Origin: an uncultured Nitrospiraceae bacterium
GTDB taxonomy: Bacteria; Nitrospirota; Thermodesulfovibrionia; Thermodesulfovibrionales; SM23-35
Direction: 5' to 3'
Length of the DNA stretch: 64,000 bases
Assembly: GCA_963727775.1 (NCBI GenBank)
Contig: CAVSHB010000001.1
Span: 1,024,001 to 1,088,000, forward strand
Under the pieces are notes generated by a model that ran no database searches, was not told the DNA's origin, and saw only the letters and a list, made by a program, of their open reading frames with translations. The translations under genes were made by a program, and so were the position numbers. Below, piece by piece: positions 5,224 through 22,902 of this stretch; the first letter of the stretch is position 1; the number at the start of each line of letters is the position of its first letter.

Positions 5224-8200
5224 TTACTTTCCTTTACCCGATAGTTTTACGACAGAAATTAACTTCTTCGGGTCATTGGATGAATTATTAATCACCGCGC
5301 TTTGATTTCCCACAGCTACAGGGGAAAACGTAACGGTAACATTACACGAATTGCCTTTTGCTAACGTACTACAATTGTTTGTTTGACTAAATTCAGATTC
5401 GTTTGTACCCGTGATAGATATTGAATTTATCGTAAGATCAGAGGTGCCCGTATTCTTTATTGCTACGGTTTTAGATGCAGATGTGTTTCCAACTACCACA
5501 GAACCAAAGTTAACTGATGTAGTAGAAACGGTAATTACCGGAGGCGGGTCCTGCCCCGAGAGTTGCACGTTAATGGTTGTTTTCTTAGGGTCACTGGATG
5601 AAATACTCATAATCGCAGTTTTATTACCAAAAAGAGATGTTGGGCTGAAAGTCACCGAGATAGTACATGAGCTACCTGGAGAGATTACGGTGCAGGAGTT
5701 TGTTTCACTGAAGTCATTTGGATCTGCACCTGCGATACTTATCGAATCTATTATAAGACTGCCCTTGCCCGTATTCTTGACAGTTACTGTTTTCGGAGCA
5801 GACGTGCTTCCGGCTTTCAGTGAACCGAAGTTAATCGATGTGGGGAGTACGGAGATTTTGGGGATACCAGCCTGAACTGCTGTAAAAGTTGCTGTGACGG
5901 TTGTGTCGGCATTCATCGTTATAGTACAAGTGCCCATGCCTGAACACCCGCCGCCGGACCAGCCTGCAACTGTTGAGCCGGTAGCCGGGGTGGCTGTCAA
6001 GCTTACCACAGTACCAGAGGTAAATGATCCTACGCAAGTGGCCCCACAATCTATGCCGGCCGGTGAACTTATCACTTCCCCTGTCCCTGTTGATGTATTT
6101 GATTTTGTTAGCGTGAGAGTATGCGGGACTGTAACCCCTATGCCTGTTAGTGAAGCACTCACTGTTATGTTTGAGTCATATGTTACAACCAGGCTTGCAC
6201 TTTTAGTTCCATTTGAGTCAGGAGCGAATAATACTTGAACTGTACATGTTCCCGCTGGGGGAAGTGTCTTACCCGAGCAGGAATCTTTTTGGATACTGAA
6301 TTCAGAGGGATTGGCACCTCCTTTTGATATCGATGTTACGCCGGAACCGGCCGTGCCATTGTTTGTGACAATAAAAGTTTGAGGCTGCGAAGAGTTACCA
6401 ATATTTACGCTACCGTAATCCTGAGAAGTTGGAGATATGTTTAACGCTGCCTGCGGCAGTGTGTCCGAGAGTTTCAGCACAAATATGTCAAAGTTCCCAC
6501 TGTAAGCATTTAAAGGAGCAGTCCCTCCGGATCCATTCCATGTGGCATCACTCTGGCCCGTCACACACACGTTCCCGCTCCCGTCTACCGCTATGCCATT
6601 GCCAAAATGATCACTCGCTGACGACCCGTAGAAGGTATGCCACCGATATGCGCCGCTGGTGCCAAGTTTCAGCACAAATATGTCAACGTTGCCGCTGTAA
6701 GCTTTTAAAGGAGAAGTCTCTCCGGGACCATTCCATGCGGCATCACTCTGGCCCGTCACATATGTGTCCCCGTTGCCGTCTACCGCTATGCCATTGCCAG
6801 AACTGTTCCCCGACCCGTAAAAGGTATGCCACTGATATGCGCCGCTGCTGTTGAGTTTCAGCACAAATATGTCAAAATCCCAGGTGCTGCTGAAAGCATT
6901 TAAAGGAACAGTCGCTCCGGGGCCATGCCATGTGGAATTACTGTATCCAGTCACATGCACATTGCCGCTGCCGTCTACTGCTATGCCTTTGCCAAAATCA
7001 TCACCATCTGCCGATCCGTAGAAAGTATGCCACTGATATGACCCGCTGGTATCGAGTTTCAGCACAAATATGTCAAAGTTGCCACTGTAAGCATTTAAAG
7101 GGGCAGTCGCCCCGGGGCCATTCCATGTAACATCACTCTGGCCTGTTACATACACATTGCCGCTGCTGTCTGCCGCAATGCCTCTGCCAGAATTATCACC
7201 CCCTGCCGATCCGTAGAAAGTATGCCACTGATATGACCCGCTGCTGTTGAGTTTCAGCACAAGTATGTCATCGCCGCCGTTGTAAGCGTTTAGAGGGGCA
7301 GTCGCTCCGGGGCCATTCCATGTGGCATTACTGTATCCCGTCACATACACGTTGCCGCTGCCGTCTACCGCTATGCCCCAGCCAGAATCATCACCCCCTG
7401 CCGCACCGTAGAAGGTATGCCATTGATATGCGCCGTTGGTGTCAAGTTTCAGCACAAATATGTCATAGTTGCCAGAGTCGCCGCTGTAAGCGTTTAGAGG
7501 AGCAGTCGCTCCGGGGCCATTCCATGTGGCATTACTGTATCCCGTCACATACACGTTGCCGCTGCTGTCTACAGCTATGCCAGTGCCATAAGCATAATTC
7601 GACCCGTAGAAGGTATGCCACTGATATGTCCCGCTGGTGTCGAGTTTCAGCACAAATATGTCAGTGTCTTCGCCGCCGCTATGAGCGTTTAGAGGAGCAG
7701 TCGCTCCGGGGCCATTCCATGTGGCATTACTGTATCCCGTCACATACACGTTGCCGCTGCCGTCTACCGCTATGCCATTGCCATAATCATTACCCGCTAC
7801 CGACCCGAAGAAGGTATGCCACTGATATGTCGGGTCTATGATAAGGTCCCGATTTCTGTCGTATTCGGCCACTCTAAAACCAATCTGCCCGTTCTCAATC
7901 CTGAAGGCGGCTTCTACCGGTATCCTTTGGACACCTATCTCCTGCCATGCCAACGGTTTGCTCTCCATCATCCAGCCCCGATCCGTCGGAAGCTTTATCC
8001 TCAACGAGCCATCCTTCTGAAGCTCTGTCTCCGCACTGTATTTGAGTCTTATATTCCCTGCGTCTGCGCCCGGCTTTATTCTATATGTGCTCTCCGCTAT
8101 GCCCCCTCCTCCAACCCCTTCATAGCTCAGGGTAATCCCTTCCCATAGGTCTTGATACTCTACCTTGCCGAGTTGCTCCAGTCCCTGCGCCTTGCCTGCC

Positions 8201-8529
8201 GATGCCTTCGGCATTACTCCATTGGTCCCCATGAACTCCACGCTCAAAAAACCTGCCGTGTTGACAAGATACACCCTGTTAGGCTTAAAGCCCATGATAT
8301 GGCTGCCCGCCTTGAATTGCATGACTTCGTTTCCTAAAGATTTATGGGGCACGGAATTCAAAGGTCTGATGTTAGTTAAGTTGACAGGGTGTATAGCCGA
8401 AAAGGCGCCGTTCCCCGGACTGACAGATGGAGAGATATTATCCTGCCCTCTACTGCCTATTGCGGCAGATGTTGCAAACGGTACAAAGATTAACGCATAA
8501 CAGAGCAATAAGACCGATACCTTTTTCAT
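5224..8529 (-). CDS. Secreted SBBP-type seven-blade beta-propeller protein with Ig-like domains and a divergent InlB B-repeat-like domain (paralog of 1746-5030)
   Basis: Same N-terminus; 7 divergent blades; SSPAGIDCGATC...LTATPATGS..GWSGGGCSG..CTITM motif; three Ig-like domains. Confidence 0.88.
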   Translation of the reverse strand: MKKVSVLLLCYALIFVPFATSAAIGSRGQDNISPSVSPGNGAFSAIHPVNLTNIRPLNSVPHKSLGNEVMQFKAGSHIMGFKPNRVYLVNTAGFLSVEFMGTNGVMPKASAGKAQGLEQLGKVEYQDLWEGITLSYEGVGGGGIAESTYRIKPGADAGNIRLKYSAETELQKDGSLRIKLPTDRGWMMESKPLAWQEIGVQRIPVEAAFRIENGQIGFRVAEYDRNRDLIIDPTYQWHTFFGSVAGNDYGNGIAVDGSGNVYVTGYSNATWNGPGATAPLNAHSGGEDTDIFVLKLDTSGTYQWHTFYGSNYAYGTGIAVDSSGNVYVTGYSNATWNGPGATAPLNAYSGDSGNYDIFVLKLDTNGAYQWHTFYGAAGGDDSGWGIAVDGSGNVYVTGYSNATWNGPGATAPLNAYNGGDDILVLKLNSSGSYQWHTFYGSAGGDNSGRGIAADSSGNVYVTGQSDVTWNGPGATAPLNAYSGNFDIFVLKLDTSGSYQWHTFYGSADGDDFGKGIAVDGSGNVHVTGYSNSTWHGPGATVPLNAFSSTWDFDIFVLKLNSSGAYQWHTFYGSGNSSGNGIAVDGNGDTYVTGQSDAAWNGPGETSPLKAYSGNVDIFVLKLGTSGAYRWHTFYGSSASDHFGNGIAVDGSGNVCVTGQSDATWNGSGGTAPLNAYSGNFDIFVLKLSDTLPQAALNISPTSQDYGSVNIGNSSQPQTFIVTNNGTAGSGVTSISKGGANPSEFSIQKDSCSGKTLPPAGTCTVQVLFAPDSNGTKSASLVVTYDSNITVSASLTGIGVTVPHTLTLTKSNTSTGTGEVISSPAGIDCGATCVGSFTSGTVVSLTATPATGSTVAGWSGGGCSGMGTCTITMNADTTVTATFTAVQAGIPKISVLPTSINFGSLKAGSTSAPKTVTVKNTGKGSLIIDSISIAGADPNDFSETNSCTVISPGSSCTISVTFSPTSLFGNKTAIMSISSSDPKKTTINVQLSGQDPPPVITVSTTSVNFGSVVVGNTSASKTVAIKNTGTSDLTINSISITGTNESEFSQTNNCSTLAKGNSCNVTVTFSPVAVGNQSAVINNSSNDPKKLISVVKLSGKGK

Positions 8530-8616: not shown

Positions 8617-8893
8617 TCACTTATCTTTCCGGGACAATTCCCATAACTGAATATATTTCCATAACATTGAATATGCCGCGCCCGTAGCCGCAATAAATCC
8701 GTAAAATCCGTCCATAAAACCCTTTTTTATGAAGTAAGTTTCTATAAATTTCCATGATGCTTTTATCGGGATGATATACATCTGAATCAACCACAATAAT
8801 TTCATCGGCCCATTTTACACTGTCAAGACAGTCCCTGATATTGTCTTTCTCATTATGCGTTATAATGGTAACCGATATTTTTTCCCTGTCCAA
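8617..8893 (-). pseudogene. Internally deleted family 2 glycosyltransferase (KdtX/WaaE-like)
   Basis: N-terminus ISVTIITHNEKDNIRDCLDSVKWADEIIVVDS joined out of frame to C-terminus KFIETYFIKKGFMDGFYGF...KYIQLWEL; central region absent. Confidence 0.85.
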
Positions 8894-8935: not shown

Positions 8936-9124
8936 ATCAACATCCGCTTCTGGAGCAAAATAGGCTATGTCTCAGAGATAACTACCAGAGGAGGAGGCGC
9001 GGCAAATGTAAATACAGGGACATTAATGCCAATTCCTAAGTTTACGCCCGCACTGCTCTGTGGAGAAAATCCTGTCAGCACCAAAAACAAGGCGCGCCGT
9101 AAGAGCTCTGATACCTTTCTCCAT
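8936..9124 (-). pseudogene. Frameshifted remnant of a small exported Pro/Tyr-rich protein
   Basis: Hand translation LFLVLTGFSPQSSAGVNLGIGINVPVFTFAAPPPLVVI, then after a frameshift AYFAPEADVD. Confidence 0.5.
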
Positions 9125-9365: not shown

Positions 9366-11339
9366 TCAATAAGCCCAGTAAGGACCGTTGCCAAGGCTGG
9401 ACGTAGTCCCATCGATCCCCAGATAGACATCCCGCCCTAAATAAAATGGAAGTCCCCAGTCGAATTCGCCAACATCACTCCCCCCTAAATCTGGAAATAC
9501 GTTGTTGGGCGAAGACATAAGACTATCGAAGTCTCCTATCTCGAAAGAGACTACTCCACTCGGGGAATCGAAGGCGCCTGTATTGGTAGCACTGAAGCTC
9601 CTTATGACAGAGGGGCAGTAAAATCCTGAATTGGGAGGAGCGCAATCCGGAAGCAGACTGGATGAGGGAGAAGGAAAGAATAGGCCATTTGAGCCGCTGT
9701 CGATAAAACTGCTGTAAGTGTTACCGTTGAAGGTTGTAATGAATTCACCGTTCTCGTCGGCGGCATAGGTTGACACTGCTGGAGGCACGTTGTTGGACCG
9801 GGTCCCGATACCAAGCACAAGGGTGCCATCGACCGAGGGCGAGCCTCCAGAAGGAACGCTCGGAAGCTTAACTATTACGCCGTTGTTGTCAACGGGCAAC
9901 AAAGCTACCGGGTTCTGCACTTGACTTGAGATTGCAACAGTGGTTCCGCTGCAGCTCGATCCGTTACACGAATAATATTGCCCGTTGTCGAGGTTGTCTG
10001 AGCAGAGGGAACCACAGTCCTGCGCAAAGAGTCCGACCCCAAGTAAACCGTTATACCCCGGATCATCCGGAACTTGGTCGGCATTTCGGCATGCGTGAGG
10101 GGCCCTTGCAAAAGTTGAGTCAATAACATGAATCGGTACCAAGACCGCAGGTTCGTTCCCCAGGATAACGCTCGCTGTCTGAACAGGCCCCCACTCCGAG
10201 GAATCGTCTGCGAACTGTACGCACTCTGCGAGCGAGCCCGAACCGGTACTTACCTGCGTCAAAGGAACGCTCAGTACCTGTTTAAATATACGTAGCCCAT
10301 AGCTTCCGGTATCAAGCAGAATATCATTTATCGTCTGACAGGTCGAGGTACCGGGCGAACAGATCGTCAGACTAACGCAAGGCTTATTCGTGTAAGAGTT
10401 AGCCGAACACAATGACCCGTTCACGGTTATGGTGAGTACATTGTCCTCAGTATTGACTGGTGGTGTATACGTGCATGATTGAGATAATATGGGAGTCCCA
10501 ACACAGCCCGCAGGGCTGCTTGATACGACTGTCCTTGTCTGTGTGCCGGTTTGTTGACATGCTGACCAGTCGGAGTAAGTGTAAGTGCATTGCTGGGGTG
10601 GAGGGGTACCAGTGCCTTTTCCACTGAGGTTAACATTAGAAATTGGTTTCTTCGGGTCATTAGTTGAAATACTCATCGTTGCACTCTTACGGCCCGCTGA
10701 TGTTGGACTTAACGTGACACTGATCGCACATGAACTGCCTTTTGCCACTATCGAACAGCTGTTGGTCTGATCAAACTCAGCAGTATTCGTGCCTGTAAAT
10801 GTTATCGCATTTACAGTAAGGTCTGATATGCCTGTATTTTTAATCGTCACTATTTTAGGAGCAGATGTAGAGCCAACTGCCACAGAACCAAAGTTAACTG
10901 ACATAGGAGAAACGGTGATCGTCGGGGGCGGAACCTGCCCTAAGAGTTGCACGTTAATGGTTGGTTTCTTAGGGTCATTGGATGAAATACTCATAACCGC
11001 ACTTTTGTTGCCAAAAGGGACTGTGGGGTTTAATGTTACAGTGATAGGGCATGAATTCTTTGCTGGTATCGTTGAACAACTATTTGTCTGATTAAACTCA
11101 TAGAGATTTGCTCCGGTAATAGTTATCGAATTTATTATTAAATCTTCGTTACCTGTGTTTTTGATGGTCACCGTCTTGGGACTAGACGTACTTCCAGCCT
11201 TTACGGAACCTAAATTGACTGACATGGGGCTTATGGATATTTTAGGCGCACTTCCAGCTTCAACAGAACCTAAAATGATAGCTGGCAATAAAATCACAAT
11301 AATTGTTGCTGCTAAGCCTAAAACTTTCTTCATGCCCAA
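9366..11339 (-). CDS. DUF3443 family protein with two N-terminal Ig-like domains and a TSP1-like Cys motif; putative pepsin-like aspartic protease
   Basis: NKPCVSLTICSPG, ILLDTGSYGLRIF, ECVQFAD..WGPV, QVQNPV, FIDSGSNG, FDWGLPFYLGR; signal peptide; YSDWSAC..TQTRT. Confidence 0.85.
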   Translation of the reverse strand: MGMKKVLGLAATIIVILLPAIILGSVEAGSAPKISISPMSVNLGSVKAGSTSSPKTVTIKNTGNEDLIINSITITGANLYEFNQTNSCSTIPAKNSCPITVTLNPTVPFGNKSAVMSISSNDPKKPTINVQLLGQVPPPTITVSPMSVNFGSVAVGSTSAPKIVTIKNTGISDLTVNAITFTGTNTAEFDQTNSCSIVAKGSSCAISVTLSPTSAGRKSATMSISTNDPKKPISNVNLSGKGTGTPPPQQCTYTYSDWSACQQTGTQTRTVVSSSPAGCVGTPILSQSCTYTPPVNTEDNVLTITVNGSLCSANSYTNKPCVSLTICSPGTSTCQTINDILLDTGSYGLRIFKQVLSVPLTQVSTGSGSLAECVQFADDSSEWGPVQTASVILGNEPAVLVPIHVIDSTFARAPHACRNADQVPDDPGYNGLLGVGLFAQDCGSLCSDNLDNGQYYSCNGSSCSGTTVAISSQVQNPVALLPVDNNGVIVKLPSVPSGGSPSVDGTLVLGIGTRSNNVPPAVSTYAADENGEFITTFNGNTYSSFIDSGSNGLFFPSPSSSLLPDCAPPNSGFYCPSVIRSFSATNTGAFDSPSGVVSFEIGDFDSLMSSPNNVFPDLGGSDVGEFDWGLPFYLGRDVYLGIDGTTSSLGNGPYWAY

Positions 11340-11375
11340 ATCTCCCTTATTATGGTTCCCGGAATTATTCGATGT

Positions 11376-11491
11376 TTACTGATAATTTCTTGCAATAGGC
11401 CCCCAATATGACGAGCCGTCTCCGTATTGGATGCACTCCACAATTGAGTAGGGACCGCCGCCCCACAGCCAGTCGCGGGCGCAAGACGCAT
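11376..11491 (-). pseudogene. Collapsed remnant of a second DUF3443 gene
   Basis: ATG 15 bp after the DUF2844 stop gives MRLAPATGCG; a shifted frame gives SIVECIQYGDGSSYWGPI, matching SLAECVQFADDSSEWGPV in the intact gene. Confidence 0.65.
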
Positions 11492-11505
11492 GGGAAAACA
11501 GTATT

Positions 11506-11976
11506 TTACCGGATTTCATCAACGCTCACTCCGGGAGGGATTAAGTCCGGGGCGTAAGCCCGGCCCTGAAGGTTCCGCATGTGCCCCCATTTCTCTACAA
11601 CAACCTGGTTCGTTCTCACTTGGAGGCGCCTTCGGCCCGGTTGACGCGAGGTCTGCCGGAGGGCTTTCTCGTATTCGCCAGCATAAGTGCCCAGAAGCTG
11701 CGTGAGATCCGGGTGGATAAGTCCATTCCAGGCGATTCCAAATACTATGCCGGACGGCGAAATGTATTCTCTCACGACGGTAGAATCAGAGGCGAGTTCG
11801 TGGACGGTGTAACCAGTGCCGACTGTAGCGGCACGCCGCACTGCCGACAGGGCCTTTCTATCCAATGTGATCGAATCGGCGGATTCACCGAGAGTGGCCT
11901 GAGCTTGCTGGACAGTAACCAAAATAGCTACCGATAGTCCGAGACTGAGAAAAAGGGCATAAGGTCTTATTTTCAT
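11506..11976 (-). CDS. DUF2844 family exported protein
   Basis: Signal peptide ending AQA-TLG; VREYISPSGIVFGIAWNG..PDLTQLLGTY; GHMRNLQGRAY; upstream of DUF3443 as typical. Confidence 0.88.
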   Translation of the reverse strand: MKIRPYALFLSLGLSVAILVTVQQAQATLGESADSITLDRKALSAVRRAATVGTGYTVHELASDSTVVREYISPSGIVFGIAWNGLIHPDLTQLLGTYAGEYEKALRQTSRQPGRRRLQVRTNQVVVEKWGHMRNLQGRAYAPDLIPPGVSVDEIR

Positions 11977-12026: not shown

Positions 12027-12521
12027 TTAAAACCCCCGTGACCGGCCGCCGCGTGATCCTCTGCCGCCTTGTTCGTCACTACGCTGTATCTTTTCACTTT
12101 GTTCTTCCCTGAGCTTTTCGTACTCTTTCATCTGTTCCTTGGTAAGAATCACGCCAAGCCGCATATCAGTCTTCCACTGAAGTTCCTGCAGCTCATTTTT
12201 TATTGCGCTTCTGTCCTGTGCATCCCTTTTCAATATCTCACGACGCGTCTTAACGCTTTCCTCGATGATCGGACGTATCTTTGTTTCCTGTTCTTCGGTC
12301 AGGTTAAGACGCTCCTTCATTTTTGCCATGACCTGCTCGGCAGAACTGTTCGTATCCGGCAGGTCAGCAGCCTGCGCCGGAATCGGCTGCGCCATAAAGA
12401 TCGCAGCTATAAGCGTAATGCAAGTTGCAAAAGCAAGATGTTTCAGCAGACTCCTATTTCTTAAGCCCAGGACACGGCATCTTATTGCTGCCGAAGTCAC
12501 TGTCATCAAATCATTATTCAT
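12027..12521 (-). CDS. Exported helical protein with LT.EQ motifs (Spy/CpxP-like)
   Basis: Signal peptide; LNLTEEQ and ILTKEQ motifs. Confidence 0.6.
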   Translation of the reverse strand: MNNDLMTVTSAAIRCRVLGLRNRSLLKHLAFATCITLIAAIFMAQPIPAQAADLPDTNSSAEQVMAKMKERLNLTEEQETKIRPIIEESVKTRREILKRDAQDRSAIKNELQELQWKTDMRLGVILTKEQMKEYEKLREEQSEKIQRSDEQGGRGSRGGRSRGF

Positions 12522-18306: not shown

Positions 18307-19926
18307 CCCGAAAAATGCGTTTGCTATAGGCATACCTATAGAGTCAAGCCTATCAAGGCATTGGCTGATTTGTCGATATAAAAGCTAATACTGATGCTGT
18401 TTCTTGTTCCACCTCCTGAAAATTATGTTCTTTTTATCTAAATGCAGTGCAATTACCAAAACTGGGGGGAAAGTATTGTCCCACGCGGTTAAAGAGGTAG
18501 CGCAGTTTTGATCGTACTTTCTGCGTAAAGACAGAAATCCGCAATACAGGTTTCCTTCCATCCCATCCTAATTGGGCTGGAAGGACAAGATACTTGTACC
18601 GTAAGGTTTTCAAACGTTCTGTCTTTTCTTTTTGACCGAGTATCTGATGCCTGAACAGGACAAACAGATTGTAGATGAATACCCGAATAAGCATAGCCGC
18701 CTCCGTTGAGTAGAAATACTTCATCGAGAACCCGCCGAGTGCAAAATCCTCTTTCAGTTCCTTGATGGTATTCTCATCGTTCGCCCTATGCCTGCATTGC
18801 TTCCATACCTCATATGTAGAATCATGTGAATTGGTTATCCATACGCTATAACGATAATGCCCTGTATCAAACTCATCTCCGAAAAGAGACAACTCTTTTC
18901 CCATCGCGTGCGGTCTCTTCTTGACATCCTGGCGCACTGCAATAAACCTCCTGTCGATTATCCACTCTACATGCTGGAAGAAGAACTCAGTGATCCATAT
19001 CCCTTCTTCTACCTGTGCCCAGTTTTGTTGTGCGTAGATTATCCTCTGCAGCGGACGATATAGGCGAGCAGCTATGATATATACTAATTCTCTCTTCTCA
19101 AGCAGTTCGATGAACTCCCTAAGATAAAATCCACTGTCTGCAATAATGCCCTTGATATCGATATGACCGTTGATCCTCTGCCATGTGGATTCAAAAAATC
19201 CAATAATGTTGTTCCATGACATCACGTTGCCGGGGCGGTTCCAAAGATTTATCACATACTTGTTTCTGTTAAGAAATGCCAGAAGCGGGCTGTGGCTACC
19301 ACGGCCCTTCTTCTTCGGGTTATATCCCCTCTTGACTCCCTCCTGTTTTCCGTATCGCTCAAGGACTGTAGAATCGAACGTCAACCAGTCCTCTTTGAGC
19401 TCTTTCCAGGGGATCAATCTCTTCAAGTATCCCCATAATCCCTCCGACATCTCTTCCACTTCCTTCAGTTTTCTGATCTTCCTGAAAAGCCTGCCCAATG
19501 TCGTCGAGGCGATAGGAAGCCTCTTCACTGCAAAAAGATCGGTGAAAATCTCCTGCCAACCAAGATAAAGTAGATGAGAAAACCTGCTGCCTCCCGCATA
19601 GATCAGAAGGATGTATGCCAATACCTTGCTGTATATCCCCATTCCATTGGGTGAACTCTCATGGATCGGAATCACCTCTTGCAAAATTCCTCTCAATTTG
19701 ATCTTTTCAAAAAATGCAGCCAATAAACTGAATCCCCCATATGCCGTCATCTTCTTCTCCGTAAATCCAATCCTTACTTTATTTATTTCGATCTTTGTGC
19801 TACATTTTGACTGCATATTTCTATTCTCCTTTCGTTTAGAGTTGATGGTCGGGTAAACCTATTGATTCTAATACGAAAGGAGAATTTCTTCGGGGATATT
19901 ATTTTAGGTCAACTGCACTTTTTGGG
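18307..19926 (-). mobile_element. IS1380-family insertion sequence, 1620 bp, TTAA target duplication
   Basis: Imperfect IRs CCCGAAAAATGCGTTTG / CCCAAAAAGTGCAGTTG; TTAA at 18303-18306 and 19927-19930; excision restores the host reading frame. Confidence 0.9.
18434..19816 (-). CDS. IS1380-family DDE transposase
   Basis: TAYGG, TFDSTV..YGKQEG...GYNPKKKG, RPGN, ADSGFY, RANDENTIKELK. Confidence 0.92.
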   Translation of the reverse strand: MQSKCSTKIEINKVRIGFTEKKMTAYGGFSLLAAFFEKIKLRGILQEVIPIHESSPNGMGIYSKVLAYILLIYAGGSRFSHLLYLGWQEIFTDLFAVKRLPIASTTLGRLFRKIRKLKEVEEMSEGLWGYLKRLIPWKELKEDWLTFDSTVLERYGKQEGVKRGYNPKKKGRGSHSPLLAFLNRNKYVINLWNRPGNVMSWNNIIGFFESTWQRINGHIDIKGIIADSGFYLREFIELLEKRELVYIIAARLYRPLQRIIYAQQNWAQVEEGIWITEFFFQHVEWIIDRRFIAVRQDVKKRPHAMGKELSLFGDEFDTGHYRYSVWITNSHDSTYEVWKQCRHRANDENTIKELKEDFALGGFSMKYFYSTEAAMLIRVFIYNLFVLFRHQILGQKEKTERLKTLRYKYLVLPAQLGWDGRKPVLRISVFTQKVRSKLRYLFNRVGQYFPPSFGNCTAFR

Positions 19927-21199
19927 TTAATAATTTGTTTCTTCGGGTCATTAGAGGAAATACTCATCAGCGCAGTCTTACTGCCCGCTGATGTTGGACT
20001 TGATGTGATACTAATAGCGCACGAACTACCCTTTGCTACTACTGTGCAGTTGTTTGTCTGACTAAACTCAACTGCATTTGTACCCGCAATTATTATTGCA
20101 TTTACAACGAGGTCTGATGTGCCTGTATTTTTAATCGTAACTTTTTTAGGAGCAGATGTAGAGCCCACCACGACAGAACCAAAGTTAACTGATGTAGTAG
20201 AAACGGTGGTCGTCGGAGGCGGGTCCTGCCCCGAGAGTTGCACGTTAATGGTTGTTTTCTTAGGGTCACTGGATGAAATACTCATAATCGCAGTTTTATT
20301 ACCAAAAAGAGATGTTGGGCTGAAAGTCACCGAGATAGTACATGAGCTACCTGGAGAGATTACGGTGCAGGAGTTTGTTTCACTGAAGTCATTTGGATCT
20401 GCACCTGCGATACTTATCGAATCTATTATAAGACTGCCCTTGCCCGTATTCTTGACAGTTACTGTTTTCGGAGCAGACGTGCTTCCGGCTTTCAGTGAAC
20501 CGAAGTTAATCGATGTGGGGAGTACGGAGATTTTGGGGATACCAGCCTGAACTGCTGTAAAAGTTGCTGTGACGGTTGTGTCGGCATTCATCGTTATAGT
20601 ACAAGTGCCCATGCCTGAACACCCGCCGCCGGACCAGCCTGCAACTGTTGAGCCGGTAGCCGGGGTGGCTGTCAAGCTTACCACAGTACCAGAGGTAAAT
20701 GATCCTACGCAAGTGGCCCCACAATCTATGCCGGCCGGTGAACTTATCACTTCCCCTGTCCCTGTTGATGTATTTGATTTTGTTAGCGTGAGAGTATGCG
20801 GGACTGTAACCCCTATGCCTGTTAGTGAAGCACTCACTGTTATGTTTGAGTCATATGTTACAACCAGGCTTGCACTTTTAGTTCCATTTGAGTCAGGAGC
20901 GAATAATACTTGAACTGTACATGTTCCCGCTGGGGGAAGTGTCTTACCCGAGCAGGAATCTTTTTGGATACTGAATTCAGAGGGATTGGCACCTCCTTTT
21001 GATATCGATGTTACGCCGGAACCGGCCGTGCCATTGTTTGTGACAATAAAAGTTTGAGGCTGCGAAGAGTTACCAATATTTACGCTACCGTAATCCTGAG
21101 AAGTTGGAGATATGTTTAACGCTGCCTGCGGCAGTGTGTCCGAGAGTTTCAGCACAAATATCTGTCCGCTGTAAGCGTTTAGAGGGATCTGTCCGCTAG

Positions 21200-22902
21200 G
21201 AGTCTGTCGGACTTTCAACATTTCTGAAAAGTTTACTTCTTGAAGGACACGGCAGTCTCTTAAGAACCTTTATTGCAAACTGGGCAGCAGAAATCTTTTC
21301 GGCCTGTAATTATCTAAGTCCGACAGACCTGCATGGGCGTTCCTTATGGCATAATAGACAAGCGGCATAAGAATGAACAACAGGAGATCAGCATAATGTT
21401 CAAACAATGTGACAGAGAGACGATATATTTATTTCCGCCGTCGGTGCAGGAATGGTTGCCCGAGGGTCACTTGGCGAGATTTGTCGTAGAGATAGTGGAT
21501 CAGCTTAATCTTGACCGGTTGAAAAATGATTATGCAGGACGAGGCAGTGAGGCATACAGCCCTGAGATGCTGGTGGCATTATTATTTTACGGATATGCGA
21601 CGGGAGTCTTTTCGAGCAGGCAATTAGAGCGTAGCACGTACGACTCTGTAGCATTCCGGTATGTGGCAGCCAACAGTCACCCTGACCATGACACAATAGC
21701 AACCTTTCGACGTCGGTTTTTGCCTAAGCTGAAAGAACTGTTTGTGCAGATACTAATGATAGCAGCAGAAACCGGGGTATTGAAGTTAGGCACGGTCAGC
21801 TTGGATGGGACCAAAATGAAAGCCAATGCCTCAAAGCACAAGGCGTTGAGCTACGGGCATGCATGCAAAATAGAGAATAAGTTGAAAGTGGAAGTGGCGG
21901 AACTGATGAAGAAAGCTGAGGCTGCTGACAAAGCTGACATTCCTGACGGCATGAACATCCCGGAAGAGCTGGAGCGGCGAGAGAAGCGGCTGAAAATGAT
22001 AGCTGAAGCAAAAGCTGAGATAGAGCGCCGTGCGGCAGAGCGGCATGCAATGGAACAAGCCGACAGTGAAAAGAAACAGGCAGAGCGTGTAGCCAAACAA
22101 AAGCAGAGCGGCAAGAAACCCCGAGGCAAAGGACCCAAGCCGCCTGCAGCCGGGCCAACTGACAAAGATCAGGTCAATCTGACCGATGAAGAATCTCGCA
22201 TAATGCCGGCATCGGGTGGAGGATTCAAGCAGGCTTATAATGCTCAAGCAGCCGTGGATACAGAAACAATGCTTATTGTCGCAACGCATGTAACACAACA
22301 ATCCAATGACAAACAGCAGATGAAACCAGCGCTTGAAGCGCTTACATATCTGCCCGAACAACTTGGCAAAGTAAAAACTATAATAGCCGACAGCGGGTAT
22401 TACAGCGAAGCAAATGTGCAAGAATGTGAGAGCAAAGGAATAGAGCCATATATAGCAGTAGATCGGCAGAGTCATAATCAGCCTTTATGGGAGCGATTCG
22501 TCGAACCGCCTCCATTGCCGGTTGATGCTGATGCAGTGACAAGAATGAAACATCGGTTGAAGACAGTTGCCGGTAAGGCAATTTATGCGATACGCAAGAG
22601 TACTGTGGAGCCGGCGTTTGGGGTAATCAAGGCAGCTATGGGATTTGACCGATTCCTGTTGCGTGGTTTTACTGCAGTCAATGGCGAGTGGGATATGATC
22701 TGCATTGCATGGAACATCAAAAGGCTGCATGCATTGAGGAACAGCCAGGTAGGCGCCTGAAAATGGCGATGGCATAATGTATCCAACAAAACACCGGCAG
22801 GAAAGAACCGATGACAGACGATCAAATCATGAAAAATAACTACAATCGACTCTCTCGGATTCCAACCGCTGTCAAAAACAGCAATTCAAGTCCGACAGAC
22901 TC
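21200..22902 (+). mobile_element. IS1182-family insertion sequence bounded by CTAG
   Basis: Perfect 15-bp IR GAGTCTGTCGGACTT / AAGTCCGACAGACTC; CTAG at 21196-21199 and 22903-22906; extra internal IR copy at 21316-21328. Confidence 0.9.
21396..22760 (+). CDS. IS1182-family transposase
   Basis: WLPEGHLARF, YGYATGVFSSR, PDHDTI, LDGTK, TDEESR, ADSGY, RKSTVEPAFG; start chosen after a GGAG RBS (ORF is open from 21333). Confidence 0.92.
   Translation: MFKQCDRETIYLFPPSVQEWLPEGHLARFVVEIVDQLNLDRLKNDYAGRGSEAYSPEMLVALLFYGYATGVFSSRQLERSTYDSVAFRYVAANSHPDHDTIATFRRRFLPKLKELFVQILMIAAETGVLKLGTVSLDGTKMKANASKHKALSYGHACKIENKLKVEVAELMKKAEAADKADIPDGMNIPEELERREKRLKMIAEAKAEIERRAAERHAMEQADSEKKQAERVAKQKQSGKKPRGKGPKPPAAGPTDKDQVNLTDEESRIMPASGGGFKQAYNAQAAVDTETMLIVATHVTQQSNDKQQMKPALEALTYLPEQLGKVKTIIADSGYYSEANVQECESKGIEPYIAVDRQSHNQPLWERFVEPPPLPVDADAVTRMKHRLKTVAGKAIYAIRKSTVEPAFGVIKAAMGFDRFLLRGFTAVNGEWDMICIAWNIKRLHALRNSQVGA

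Follow-up and report, generated by a model that had tools for sequence, protein, structure and literature searches.

Locus and Gene Assignment

The stretch of DNA analyzed here, referred to as the window, is 64,000 nt long and covers positions 1,024,001-1,088,000 of contig CAVSHB010000001.1 (assembly GCA_963727775.1) of an uncultured Nitrospiraceae bacterium (SM23-35). We examined two neighboring minus-strand genes that encode a DUF3443 and a DUF2844 protein, for which the models suggest a pepsin-type protease and a partner that plugs its active site, respectively. An earlier note had placed a DUF2844-DUF3443 gene pair at 9366..11976, and both open reading frames (ORFs) were found there, with Pfam matches above the curated cut-offs. 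The DUF3443 match (PF11925) spans residues 295-655 of the longer protein (E 1.6e-128, 429 bits against a cut-off of 25, model positions 2-367), and the DUF2844 match (PF11005) covers model positions 1-130 (E 3.1e-45, 153.7 bits against a cut-off of 22.4). By these profile matches, the 655-aa and 156-aa proteins are full members of the DUF3443 and DUF2844 families, respectively. The features of the two genes that bear on function are:

9366-11339, minus strand: long Ig-Ig-TSR-DUF3443 ORF; gene 9366..11333 with a likely ATG at 11333, 655 aa
9369..10463, minus strand: DUF3443 domain, predicted bilobed pepsin fold; acidic, net charge -24, 12 Cys
10311..10313, minus strand: Asp341 of the DTG motif, predicted first catalytic aspartate, kept in 88/88 homologues
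9699..9701, minus strand: Asp545 of the DSG motif, predicted second catalytic aspartate, kept in 88/88 homologues
10203..10214, minus strand: likely flap tip Phe374-Ala-Asp-Asp377, its equivalence to the pepsin flap being deduced from motif spacing
11506..11976, minus strand: DUF2844 gene, 156 aa; signal peptide and 129-aa basic alpha/beta domain with isoelectric point (pI) 9.5
11575..11586, minus strand: G-H-M-R hairpin tip of DUF2844, residues 131-134 (mature 104-107), predicted from complex-model contacts to enter the catalytic cleft

A promoter scan gave 12 sites (6.8 expected) and a terminator scan 4 (5.0 expected); neither was used as evidence.

Predicted Fold of DUF3443

AlphaFold2, run on an 88-sequence alignment of the DUF3443 domain, produced a model with a mean predicted local distance difference test score (pLDDT) of 95.8 and a predicted template modeling score of 0.93. 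The top Foldseek matches were BACE1, endothiapepsin and rhizopuspepsin (E about 4e-12 to 1e-11), and all matches shown were BACE1 or fungal pepsins. In a wide structural search with VIA-align, bilobed aspartic proteases ranked first, the best being 1wkr (Z 23.9, root-mean-square deviation 3.0 over 278 residues, model range 6-365). The same search returned PE_PGRS16 at Z 19.6 and retropepsins at Z 4-9, whereas the first unrelated entry appeared at Z 2.9 and unrelated folds stayed below 3. Non-enzymes that have the pepsin fold were matched as well (3aup, Z 18.6; 3hd8, Z 16.9), and an Atlas feature search with DUF3443 gave PE-PGRS_C and Asp clusters at 0.90-0.92. The bilobed pepsin-like layout that the earlier note had read from the motifs was thus recovered by structure prediction, and the DUF3443 domain is predicted to be a two-lobed pepsin-type fold in one chain.

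Sequence comparison did not reveal this relationship. Searches of PDB sequences with the DUF3443 domain, the DUF3443 profile and DUF2844 gave nothing meaningful, with no pepsin among the matches. The Asp family profile (PF00026) had no match to the window DUF3443 protein at E up to 1, and matched one of the 88 members at E 0.0022. Family A1 is defined by D[TS]G and psi-loop motifs plus a flap Tyr (PMC2761423). The window copy has Phe in place of this Tyr, and we consider the domain pepsin-like by prediction but do not class it as an A1 member.

Predicted Catalytic and Flap Residues

The motifs LLDTGS (Asp341) and FIDSGS (Asp545), estimated earlier to lie about 200 aa apart, are spaced 204 residues, and both follow the pattern hydrophobic-hydrophobic-Asp-[ST]-Gly-[ST]. 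GLLGVG and DWGLP are found downstream of them. The suggestion that each aspartate motif is followed by a hydrophobic-Gly motif holds for GLLGVG, where L-L-G conforms to the first psi-loop; in DWGLP the second psi-loop Gly is preceded by Asp-Trp, with Asp in a hydrophobic slot, and the motif is not strictly hydrophobic-hydrophobic-Gly. Both psi-loop glycines are invariant in the 88-sequence alignment.

Both aspartates are present in all 88 aligned homologues (alignment A3). A profile search with the single domain (E up to 0.001) gave 2342 representatives at 50% identity, and among the best 150 of these, both aspartates occur in 134 of the 139 that cover both sites. The flap position is aromatic throughout the 88 sequences (Tyr in 50, Phe in 38); the window copy has Phe374 and so lacks the A1 flap Tyr75. 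We consider it quite probable that DUF3443 family members are active proteases.

Some relatives depart from the common arrangement. In loci L017 and L018 (Ca. Magnetominusculus) and L021, the first motif reads D-T-M instead of D-T-G and a DUF2844 gene lies downstream; from their sequences, members of this branch are possibly pseudo-enzymes. In the DUF3443 lipoproteins L140:4490-5821 (G247:C35), P0264 and P0295, the order of the lobes is circularly permuted: the C-terminal lobe comes first, and neither Asp motif has been lost. The G247 copy is still coupled to DUF2844, and P0295 is permuted at another point. Such forms may have arisen by tandem duplication and trimming, or may reflect misassembly.

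Pairing of DUF2844 and DUF3443

Among 301 genomes of the phylum of the window, which include kin that are not independent of each other, DUF3443 occurs in 51, DUF2844 in 50 and both in 48; genomes with DUF2844 only are rare (2/50). After removal of three duplicate loci, DUF2844 was adjacent to DUF3443 in 38 of the 42 remaining loci, in line with the earlier statement that the two commonly are neighbors, and in 28 of these non-redundant loci the genes share a 14-nt start/stop overlap. The four loci scored as partnerless comprise two that end at contig edges (L010, L036), one in which a longer fetch contained DUF2844 (L035) and one with a broken DUF2844 (L024). The script scored L019 as having its partner downstream, but when the gene is taken in full the partner lies upstream. 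Some lineages have the two genes in the opposite order. In the genome of the window itself, contig C2 carries a further DUF2844-DUF3443 pair, intact and coupled, with housekeeping genes around it. Over 39 loci, the mirror correlation of the two families was high (Spearman 0.77, 0/2000 permutations), but we do not take this as co-evolution because kin share history.

One protein, P0247, joins the two families naturally in a single frame as signal peptide, DUF2844, an unannotated spacer of about 165 aa and DUF3443, with no internal signal peptide, on a 159-kb contig. This fusion places DUF2844 in the position of a propeptide. An apparent second fusion, P0394, was rejected as a frameshift join, since it retains an internal signal peptide and a lipobox.

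On plasmids, the partnerless DUF3443 genes at L083:6022-7092 and L091:3016-4092 (Caballeronia and Burkholderia vietnamiensis) directly follow a TAXI-family TRAP solute-binding gene and have no signal peptide as annotated. On Burkholderia glumae pBGF2 (L081:5217-7029), the pair lies within a chemotaxis-flagellar cluster, between cheZ and flhB.

Predicted Complex of DUF2844 and DUF3443

The DUF2844 model alone is of moderate confidence (pLDDT 84.7), and its fold search pointed to no clear family, the best match having Z 7.7 and no Foldseek match reaching E 0.001. In complex with DUF3443, it gave an ipSAE interface score of 0.93 compared with 0.11 for the best of three controls; the partner had a pLDDT of at least 89 and the runs shared at least 99% of contacts. 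Of 157 solved complexes, 116 attain the mark used for ipSAE, as do 2 of 215 mismatched pairs, a benchmark that applies only roughly here because our own alignments were used. A confident interface had been anticipated in the earlier note, and the one obtained lies in the catalytic cleft.

The predicted interface comprises about 120 contacts. In the closest of these, mature partner residues 102-109 and 59-61 meet the first Asp motif, the second Asp motif, the flap and the Asp-Trp-Gly motif. Partner residues 105-106 reach both Asp motifs (domain residues 53-55 and 253) and residue 335, and both Asp motifs contact one and the same residue, 105, which indirectly favors juxtaposed aspartates at the lobe interface. 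The tip to which these residues belong, G-H-M-R, is the most conserved 7-residue window of the DUF2844 alignment (G in 47/47, H in 42, M in 41, R in 44); Burkholderiaceae have GGHMG or GGRMR versions. The charges of the two proteins are also complementary, with a pI above 8 for the partner in 40/47 and below 6 for the enzyme domain in 42/42. Pepsinogen prosegments are likewise basic. DUF2844 is thus predicted to be a cleft-plugging partner of DUF3443, with the tip of its hairpin in the active site.

History of the Locus

In the window, 172 nt separate the DUF2844 and DUF3443 genes. This is not a plain spacer, since it contains a DUF3443 remnant that the earlier note missed. The features relevant to the history of the pair are:

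11376..11519, minus strand: decayed lipoprotein-type DUF3443 remnant between the two genes (tblastn E 4.7e-10 to 3.8e-8, 261-nt subject; synteny with L007)
9366..9752, minus strand: 3' tract near-identical to the C2 paralogue (4/387 nt differ, 85/711 upstream)
12027..12521, minus strand: upstream Spy/LTXXQ-like gene (weak Pfam and NCBIfam matches below cut-off), synteny marker shared with L007 and L095

The remnant has a start codon that shares a 14-nt overlap with the DUF2844 stop, followed by a lipobox that has fallen out of frame and by part of the flap loop at 11394-11456. Locus L007 is syntenic, with the Spy-like gene and a DUF2844 that is 89% identical, and has an intact lipoprotein DUF3443 in the place of the remnant. 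The flap fragment is identical to L007 at 15 of 18 positions, compared with 10 of 18 for the DUF3443 of the window itself. The sequence thus indicates that the original lipoprotein DUF3443 partner of the window DUF2844 has decayed to a remnant. The relative that carries L007 has its Ig-bearing DUF3443 elsewhere, with a coupled DUF2844 of its own.

The two window proteins have different nearest relatives, the enzyme domain being closest to the C2 paralogue (89%) and DUF2844 closest to L007. Within the window DUF3443 gene, only 4 positions of the last 387 nt differ from the C2 copy, as opposed to 85 of the 711 upstream; judged from the sequence, this tract likely reflects recent gene conversion, or else an assembly artefact. 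Because of the remnant, the L007 synteny and the affinities of the paralogues, we regard the window pair as a secondary juxtaposition within a real family partnership. The Ig-bearing paralogue of the window is likely served by the window DUF2844 or by the second copy on C2.

Stalk, Anchor and Neighboring Genes

N-terminal to the DUF3443 domain, the 655-aa protein contains:

11256..11333, minus strand: likely Sec signal peptide without lipobox cysteine; hydrophobic stretch, cleavage site deduced
10932..11249, minus strand: immunoglobulin-like (Ig) domain 1 (ASH/HYDIN, choice-of-anchor D; Pfam, NCBIfam)
10611..10931, minus strand: Ig domain 2 (ASH/HYDIN, choice-of-anchor D; Pfam, NCBIfam)
10461..10595, minus strand: four-cysteine TSR/pleiotrophin-like mobile module of 45 aa, residues 247-291, WSxC..QTRT

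Compared with their nearest counterparts in the two neighboring SBBP propeller proteins, where the Ig domains are C-terminal, both domains show 56-69% identity, which confirms the kinship proposed before; one further Ig domain there is more distant (32-37%). The same Ig pair ends another secreted protein of the genome (G000:C1:206097-207758; L139:6098-7759), far from any DUF3443 gene. The view of an Ig/TSP1 stalk as part of the system was not upheld: among the best 120 DUF3443 homologues, 17 have this Ig type, 15 have Big_2 and 56 a lipobox pattern, and the TSR-like module is present in none of the 17 Ig-bearing ones. Among 32 longer DUF3443 proteins scanned, CARDB, SLH, fn3 and InlB-B repeats were some of the other N-termini. 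From this survey of sequences, the Ig/TSR stalk is an interchangeable add-on that adds little.

The thrombospondin-like WSxC..QTRT motif of the earlier note does mark a real, mobile module, but its identification as TSP1 was not borne out. The window module had no match to Pfam TSP_1 (PF00090), which matched 2 of 42 related modules (best E 0.01), and it matched PTN_MK_C at E 2.4e-4, below cut-off (35 of the 42 modules at E up to 1, best 8.7e-05). A profile of the 42 copies matched MIC2, pleiotrophin and midkine in the PDB at E 0.002-0.14. These weak profile matches lend slight support to the term TSR-like and none to the label TSP1. The module is 41-45 aa long with invariant C, W, C, R, C, C (window 10461-10595; L087, L097-L137), recurs singly or in tandem in many proteins that environmental bacteria secrete, and has no Pfam family to itself. 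In 37 other ORFs, where it is often in tandem, it accompanies Lcl, laminin-G, cytochrome c or dockerin domains (19 ORFs scanned). We take it for a mobile module of the linker type with a weak relation to pleiotrophin and MIC2.

Surface display, which the earlier note had proposed, found no backing. The signal peptide has a mean Kyte-Doolittle score of 2.75 over 19 residues with no Cys in the first 35 residues, and in the 655-aa protein we detected no lipobox Cys, no hydrophobic window after residue 40 and no NCBIfam sorting-signal match. The protein could therefore be periplasmic or released. Processing of the co-located propeller proteins fared no better: among 16 genome loci, the flanking sequence retrieved contained a propeller homologue in 2, which does not support a dedicated role in their maturation, and the second pair of this genome stands among housekeeping genes.

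The 836-nt gap between the DUF3443 and SBBP genes is occupied by short ORF fragments, including those at 8617-8893 and 8965-9090, and by its sequence the region looks like a gene-decay zone. One short fragment in it presumably resembles the start of a family-2 glycosyltransferase. Elsewhere in the window, the C-terminal half of the SBBP protein at 5224-8529 recurs at 19899-21221 as a truncated near-copy, between two ORFs (18434-19816 and 21333-22760) that we take to be transposase-like.

Proposed Function and Alternatives

The explanation that we prefer, with a confidence slightly above even, is that DUF3443 is an exported pepsin-type endopeptidase held shut by a DUF2844 plug encoded in trans, acting as a propeptide or inhibitor. 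The two genes occur together and overlap by 14 nt in most relatives. Sec would export both proteins, and the basic partner and the acidic enzyme would associate 1:1, with the His-Met of the tip predicted to be seated on both Asp motifs beneath the flap. By analogy with pepsinogen prosegments, the enzyme might be released by lower pH or cleavage of the partner, for example. The N-terminal Ig/TSR stalk may serve as a swappable spacer or binding module in place of the usual lipid anchor. A wider proposal, which we put forward tentatively and at somewhat less than even confidence, is that DUF2844-DUF3443 constitutes a split zymogen. The exported pepsins of this large bacterial branch would have as propeptide a separate protein, folded and translationally coupled, that plugs the aspartate pair by a conserved His-Met hairpin and is occasionally fused as a true prodomain.

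Several observations weigh against inhibition or against activity. An inhibitor, a substrate and a structural subunit look alike to structure prediction, which has a tendency to dock loops into protease clefts. Conservation of the whole interface (0.68) hardly differs from that of the rest of DUF2844 (0.67), and the tip alone stands out (0.85). The fusion is known from the single sequence P0247, which was itself missed when longer DUF2844 proteins were searched for; that search yielded nothing but a frameshift join. On plasmid records, both genes are present in six of eight, and DUF3443 is without an annotated partner in the other two, with both Asp motifs kept. The Gly of the DTG motif is substituted in 13 of the 88 aligned homologues, although in only 3 of 141 wider representatives. 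At the flap of the window copy, Asp377 stands in place of a Gly that 83/88 homologues retain, a substitution by Asp that occurs in 1/88. Finally, Phe at the flap weakened rhizopuspepsin (PMC2761423), and the window copy has Phe.

Placement of the tip in the cleft on both Asp motifs, its standing as the best-conserved part of DUF2844, and the strict gene pairing would also suit an active protease for which DUF2844 is the dedicated substrate, with the tip as scissile site and cleavage freeing a signal or activating the partner. We consider this distinctly unlikely: the tip is a tight beta-hairpin turn in a folded domain rather than an extended strand, and aspartic proteases usually cut extended strands. 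Moreover, the interface of about 120 contacts is large, and one-to-one translational coupling would fit a stoichiometric partner better. Unlikely, if to a lesser degree, is a stable, non-proteolytic two-subunit envelope protein that binds or senses, like the plant xylanase inhibitors with a pepsin fold, and in which the aspartates would hold the partner His. It would accommodate the structural matches to the non-enzymes 3aup and 3hd8, the substituted DTG glycines and the inactivity of PE_PGRS16, which showed no activity despite intact motifs (PMC6819658). It accords less well with the retention of both aspartates, both psi-loop glycines and the aromatic flap residue across the inspected 50%-identity representatives, and with the two partnerless copies that retain both Asp motifs. 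A toxin-immunity cassette, in which the protease would hit envelope proteins of competing microbes while periplasmic DUF2844 shields the producer, is improbable. Patchy distribution (a search of 18 same-family genomes did not find the DNA), plasmid occurrence, variable N-termini and a weak DUF2844 fold match to the Rhs immunity protein 6xtd (Z 5.2) are in its favor. However, many members are lipid-anchored, no secretion-system genes adjoin the loci whose genes were listed, genomes with DUF2844 only are rare, and the fold matches of DUF2844 are at background level.

Two further alternatives concern the window copy. A stalked surface protease that matures the neighboring SBBP propeller proteins could draw on their common Ig domains and on the precedent of mycobacterial PecA, a proven surface aspartic protease that cleaves co-secreted proteins (PMC6819658); with propeller genes near so few loci, a gap of ORF fragments between the genes, the same Ig pair on a distant protein and no anchor found, we hold it to be the least probable of these readings. 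That the window gene is a decaying or chimeric paralogue of little activity, the functional pair being on C2, is compatible with a plugged endopeptidase as the family function and is a minor possibility that deserves to be taken seriously. The remnant gene and lost coupling, the near-unique flap change, the mosaic identity with the C2 paralogue and the gene fragments downstream all speak for it. On the other hand, nothing interrupts the 655-aa frame, which has all motifs and cysteines, the metagenome protein P0015 shares the uncoupled N-terminus, and a purine-rich stretch resembling a ribosome-binding site precedes the start codon.

Relation to Known Systems

The predicted two-lobed fold matches pepsins (MEROPS A1/PF00026: 1wkr, the Irpex lacteus proteinase, as well as penicillopepsin, endothiapepsin and BACE1) over the whole domain at Z 19-24. 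Like these enzymes, DUF3443 has two D[TS]G motifs, two psi-loop glycines and an aromatic flap residue, and is exported and cysteine-rich; it differs by an identity of only 10-19%, the lack of a covalent prosegment, the second psi-loop Asp-Trp-Gly and the separately encoded partner. Shewasins A and D (PMC2761423, PMC4814920) are likewise bilobed bacterial proteins of pepsin fold without a prosegment. According to the accessible text, the spacing from first Asp to flap is 32 residues in shewasins, compared with 33 in the window DUF3443, and both have Leu after the second psi-loop Gly where pepsin has Asp303, a register that is deduced from the motifs. Whereas shewasins are described there as cytoplasmic, without signal peptide and from seven genomes, DUF3443 is exported or lipid-anchored, has 2342 representatives at 50% identity and comes with a partner gene. 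PecA and PE_PGRS16 (PF20729, PDB 4ehc; PMC6819658) resemble DUF3443 in having a C-terminal bilobed DTG/DSG domain on a long exported protein. PecA, however, combines type VII secretion with a PGRS stalk, while DUF3443 has a Sec signal with an Ig stalk or lipid anchor, and in the accessible part of PMC6819658 no cleft-plugging partner is described for PecA, whereas one is predicted for DUF3443.

Within its family, the window copy differs from other DUF3443 proteins in that an ASH-Ig pair and a TSR-like module replace the lipobox, and the remnant gene uncouples DUF2844. For DUF2844, comparison with inhibitory folds of BLIP/PepSY type gave YpeB at Z 5.5, 3elg at 5.4, BamE at 5.3 and BLIP-like folds at 4.5-4.6, with BLIP/PepSY entries overall at Z 4.5-5.7. 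As all fold matches have Z <8, which is the background range, the BLIP/PepSY likeness is a lead only.

PF11925 was already listed under the SCOP acid proteases b.50.1 in 2015 (PMC4520260, supplementary files 3 and 4); DUF2844 is not mentioned in the accessible parts of these files. We found no paper that names DUF3443, DUF2844 or PF11925 in its main text, supplements and most subscription journals being outside the search, and other supplements may hold more. The earlier description of an undescribed system therefore stands for the partner and function of DUF3443, and not for the fold, which had been listed before.

Bacterial pepsin-type proteases are described in the accessible literature as rare and mostly cytoplasmic, whereas DUF3443 is exported and has more than 2300 representatives at 50% identity. 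If the proposed function is true, two domains of unknown function would gain one, and a protein inhibitor type would be added for aspartic proteases. The predicted binding mode names residues to mutate, and the control of bacterial pepsins that lack a prosegment would become directly testable. If the split zymogen is also true, it would define a new class of inhibitor, a folded bacterial protein acting on aspartic proteases, and would offer a living model of how pepsin prosegments might have originated.

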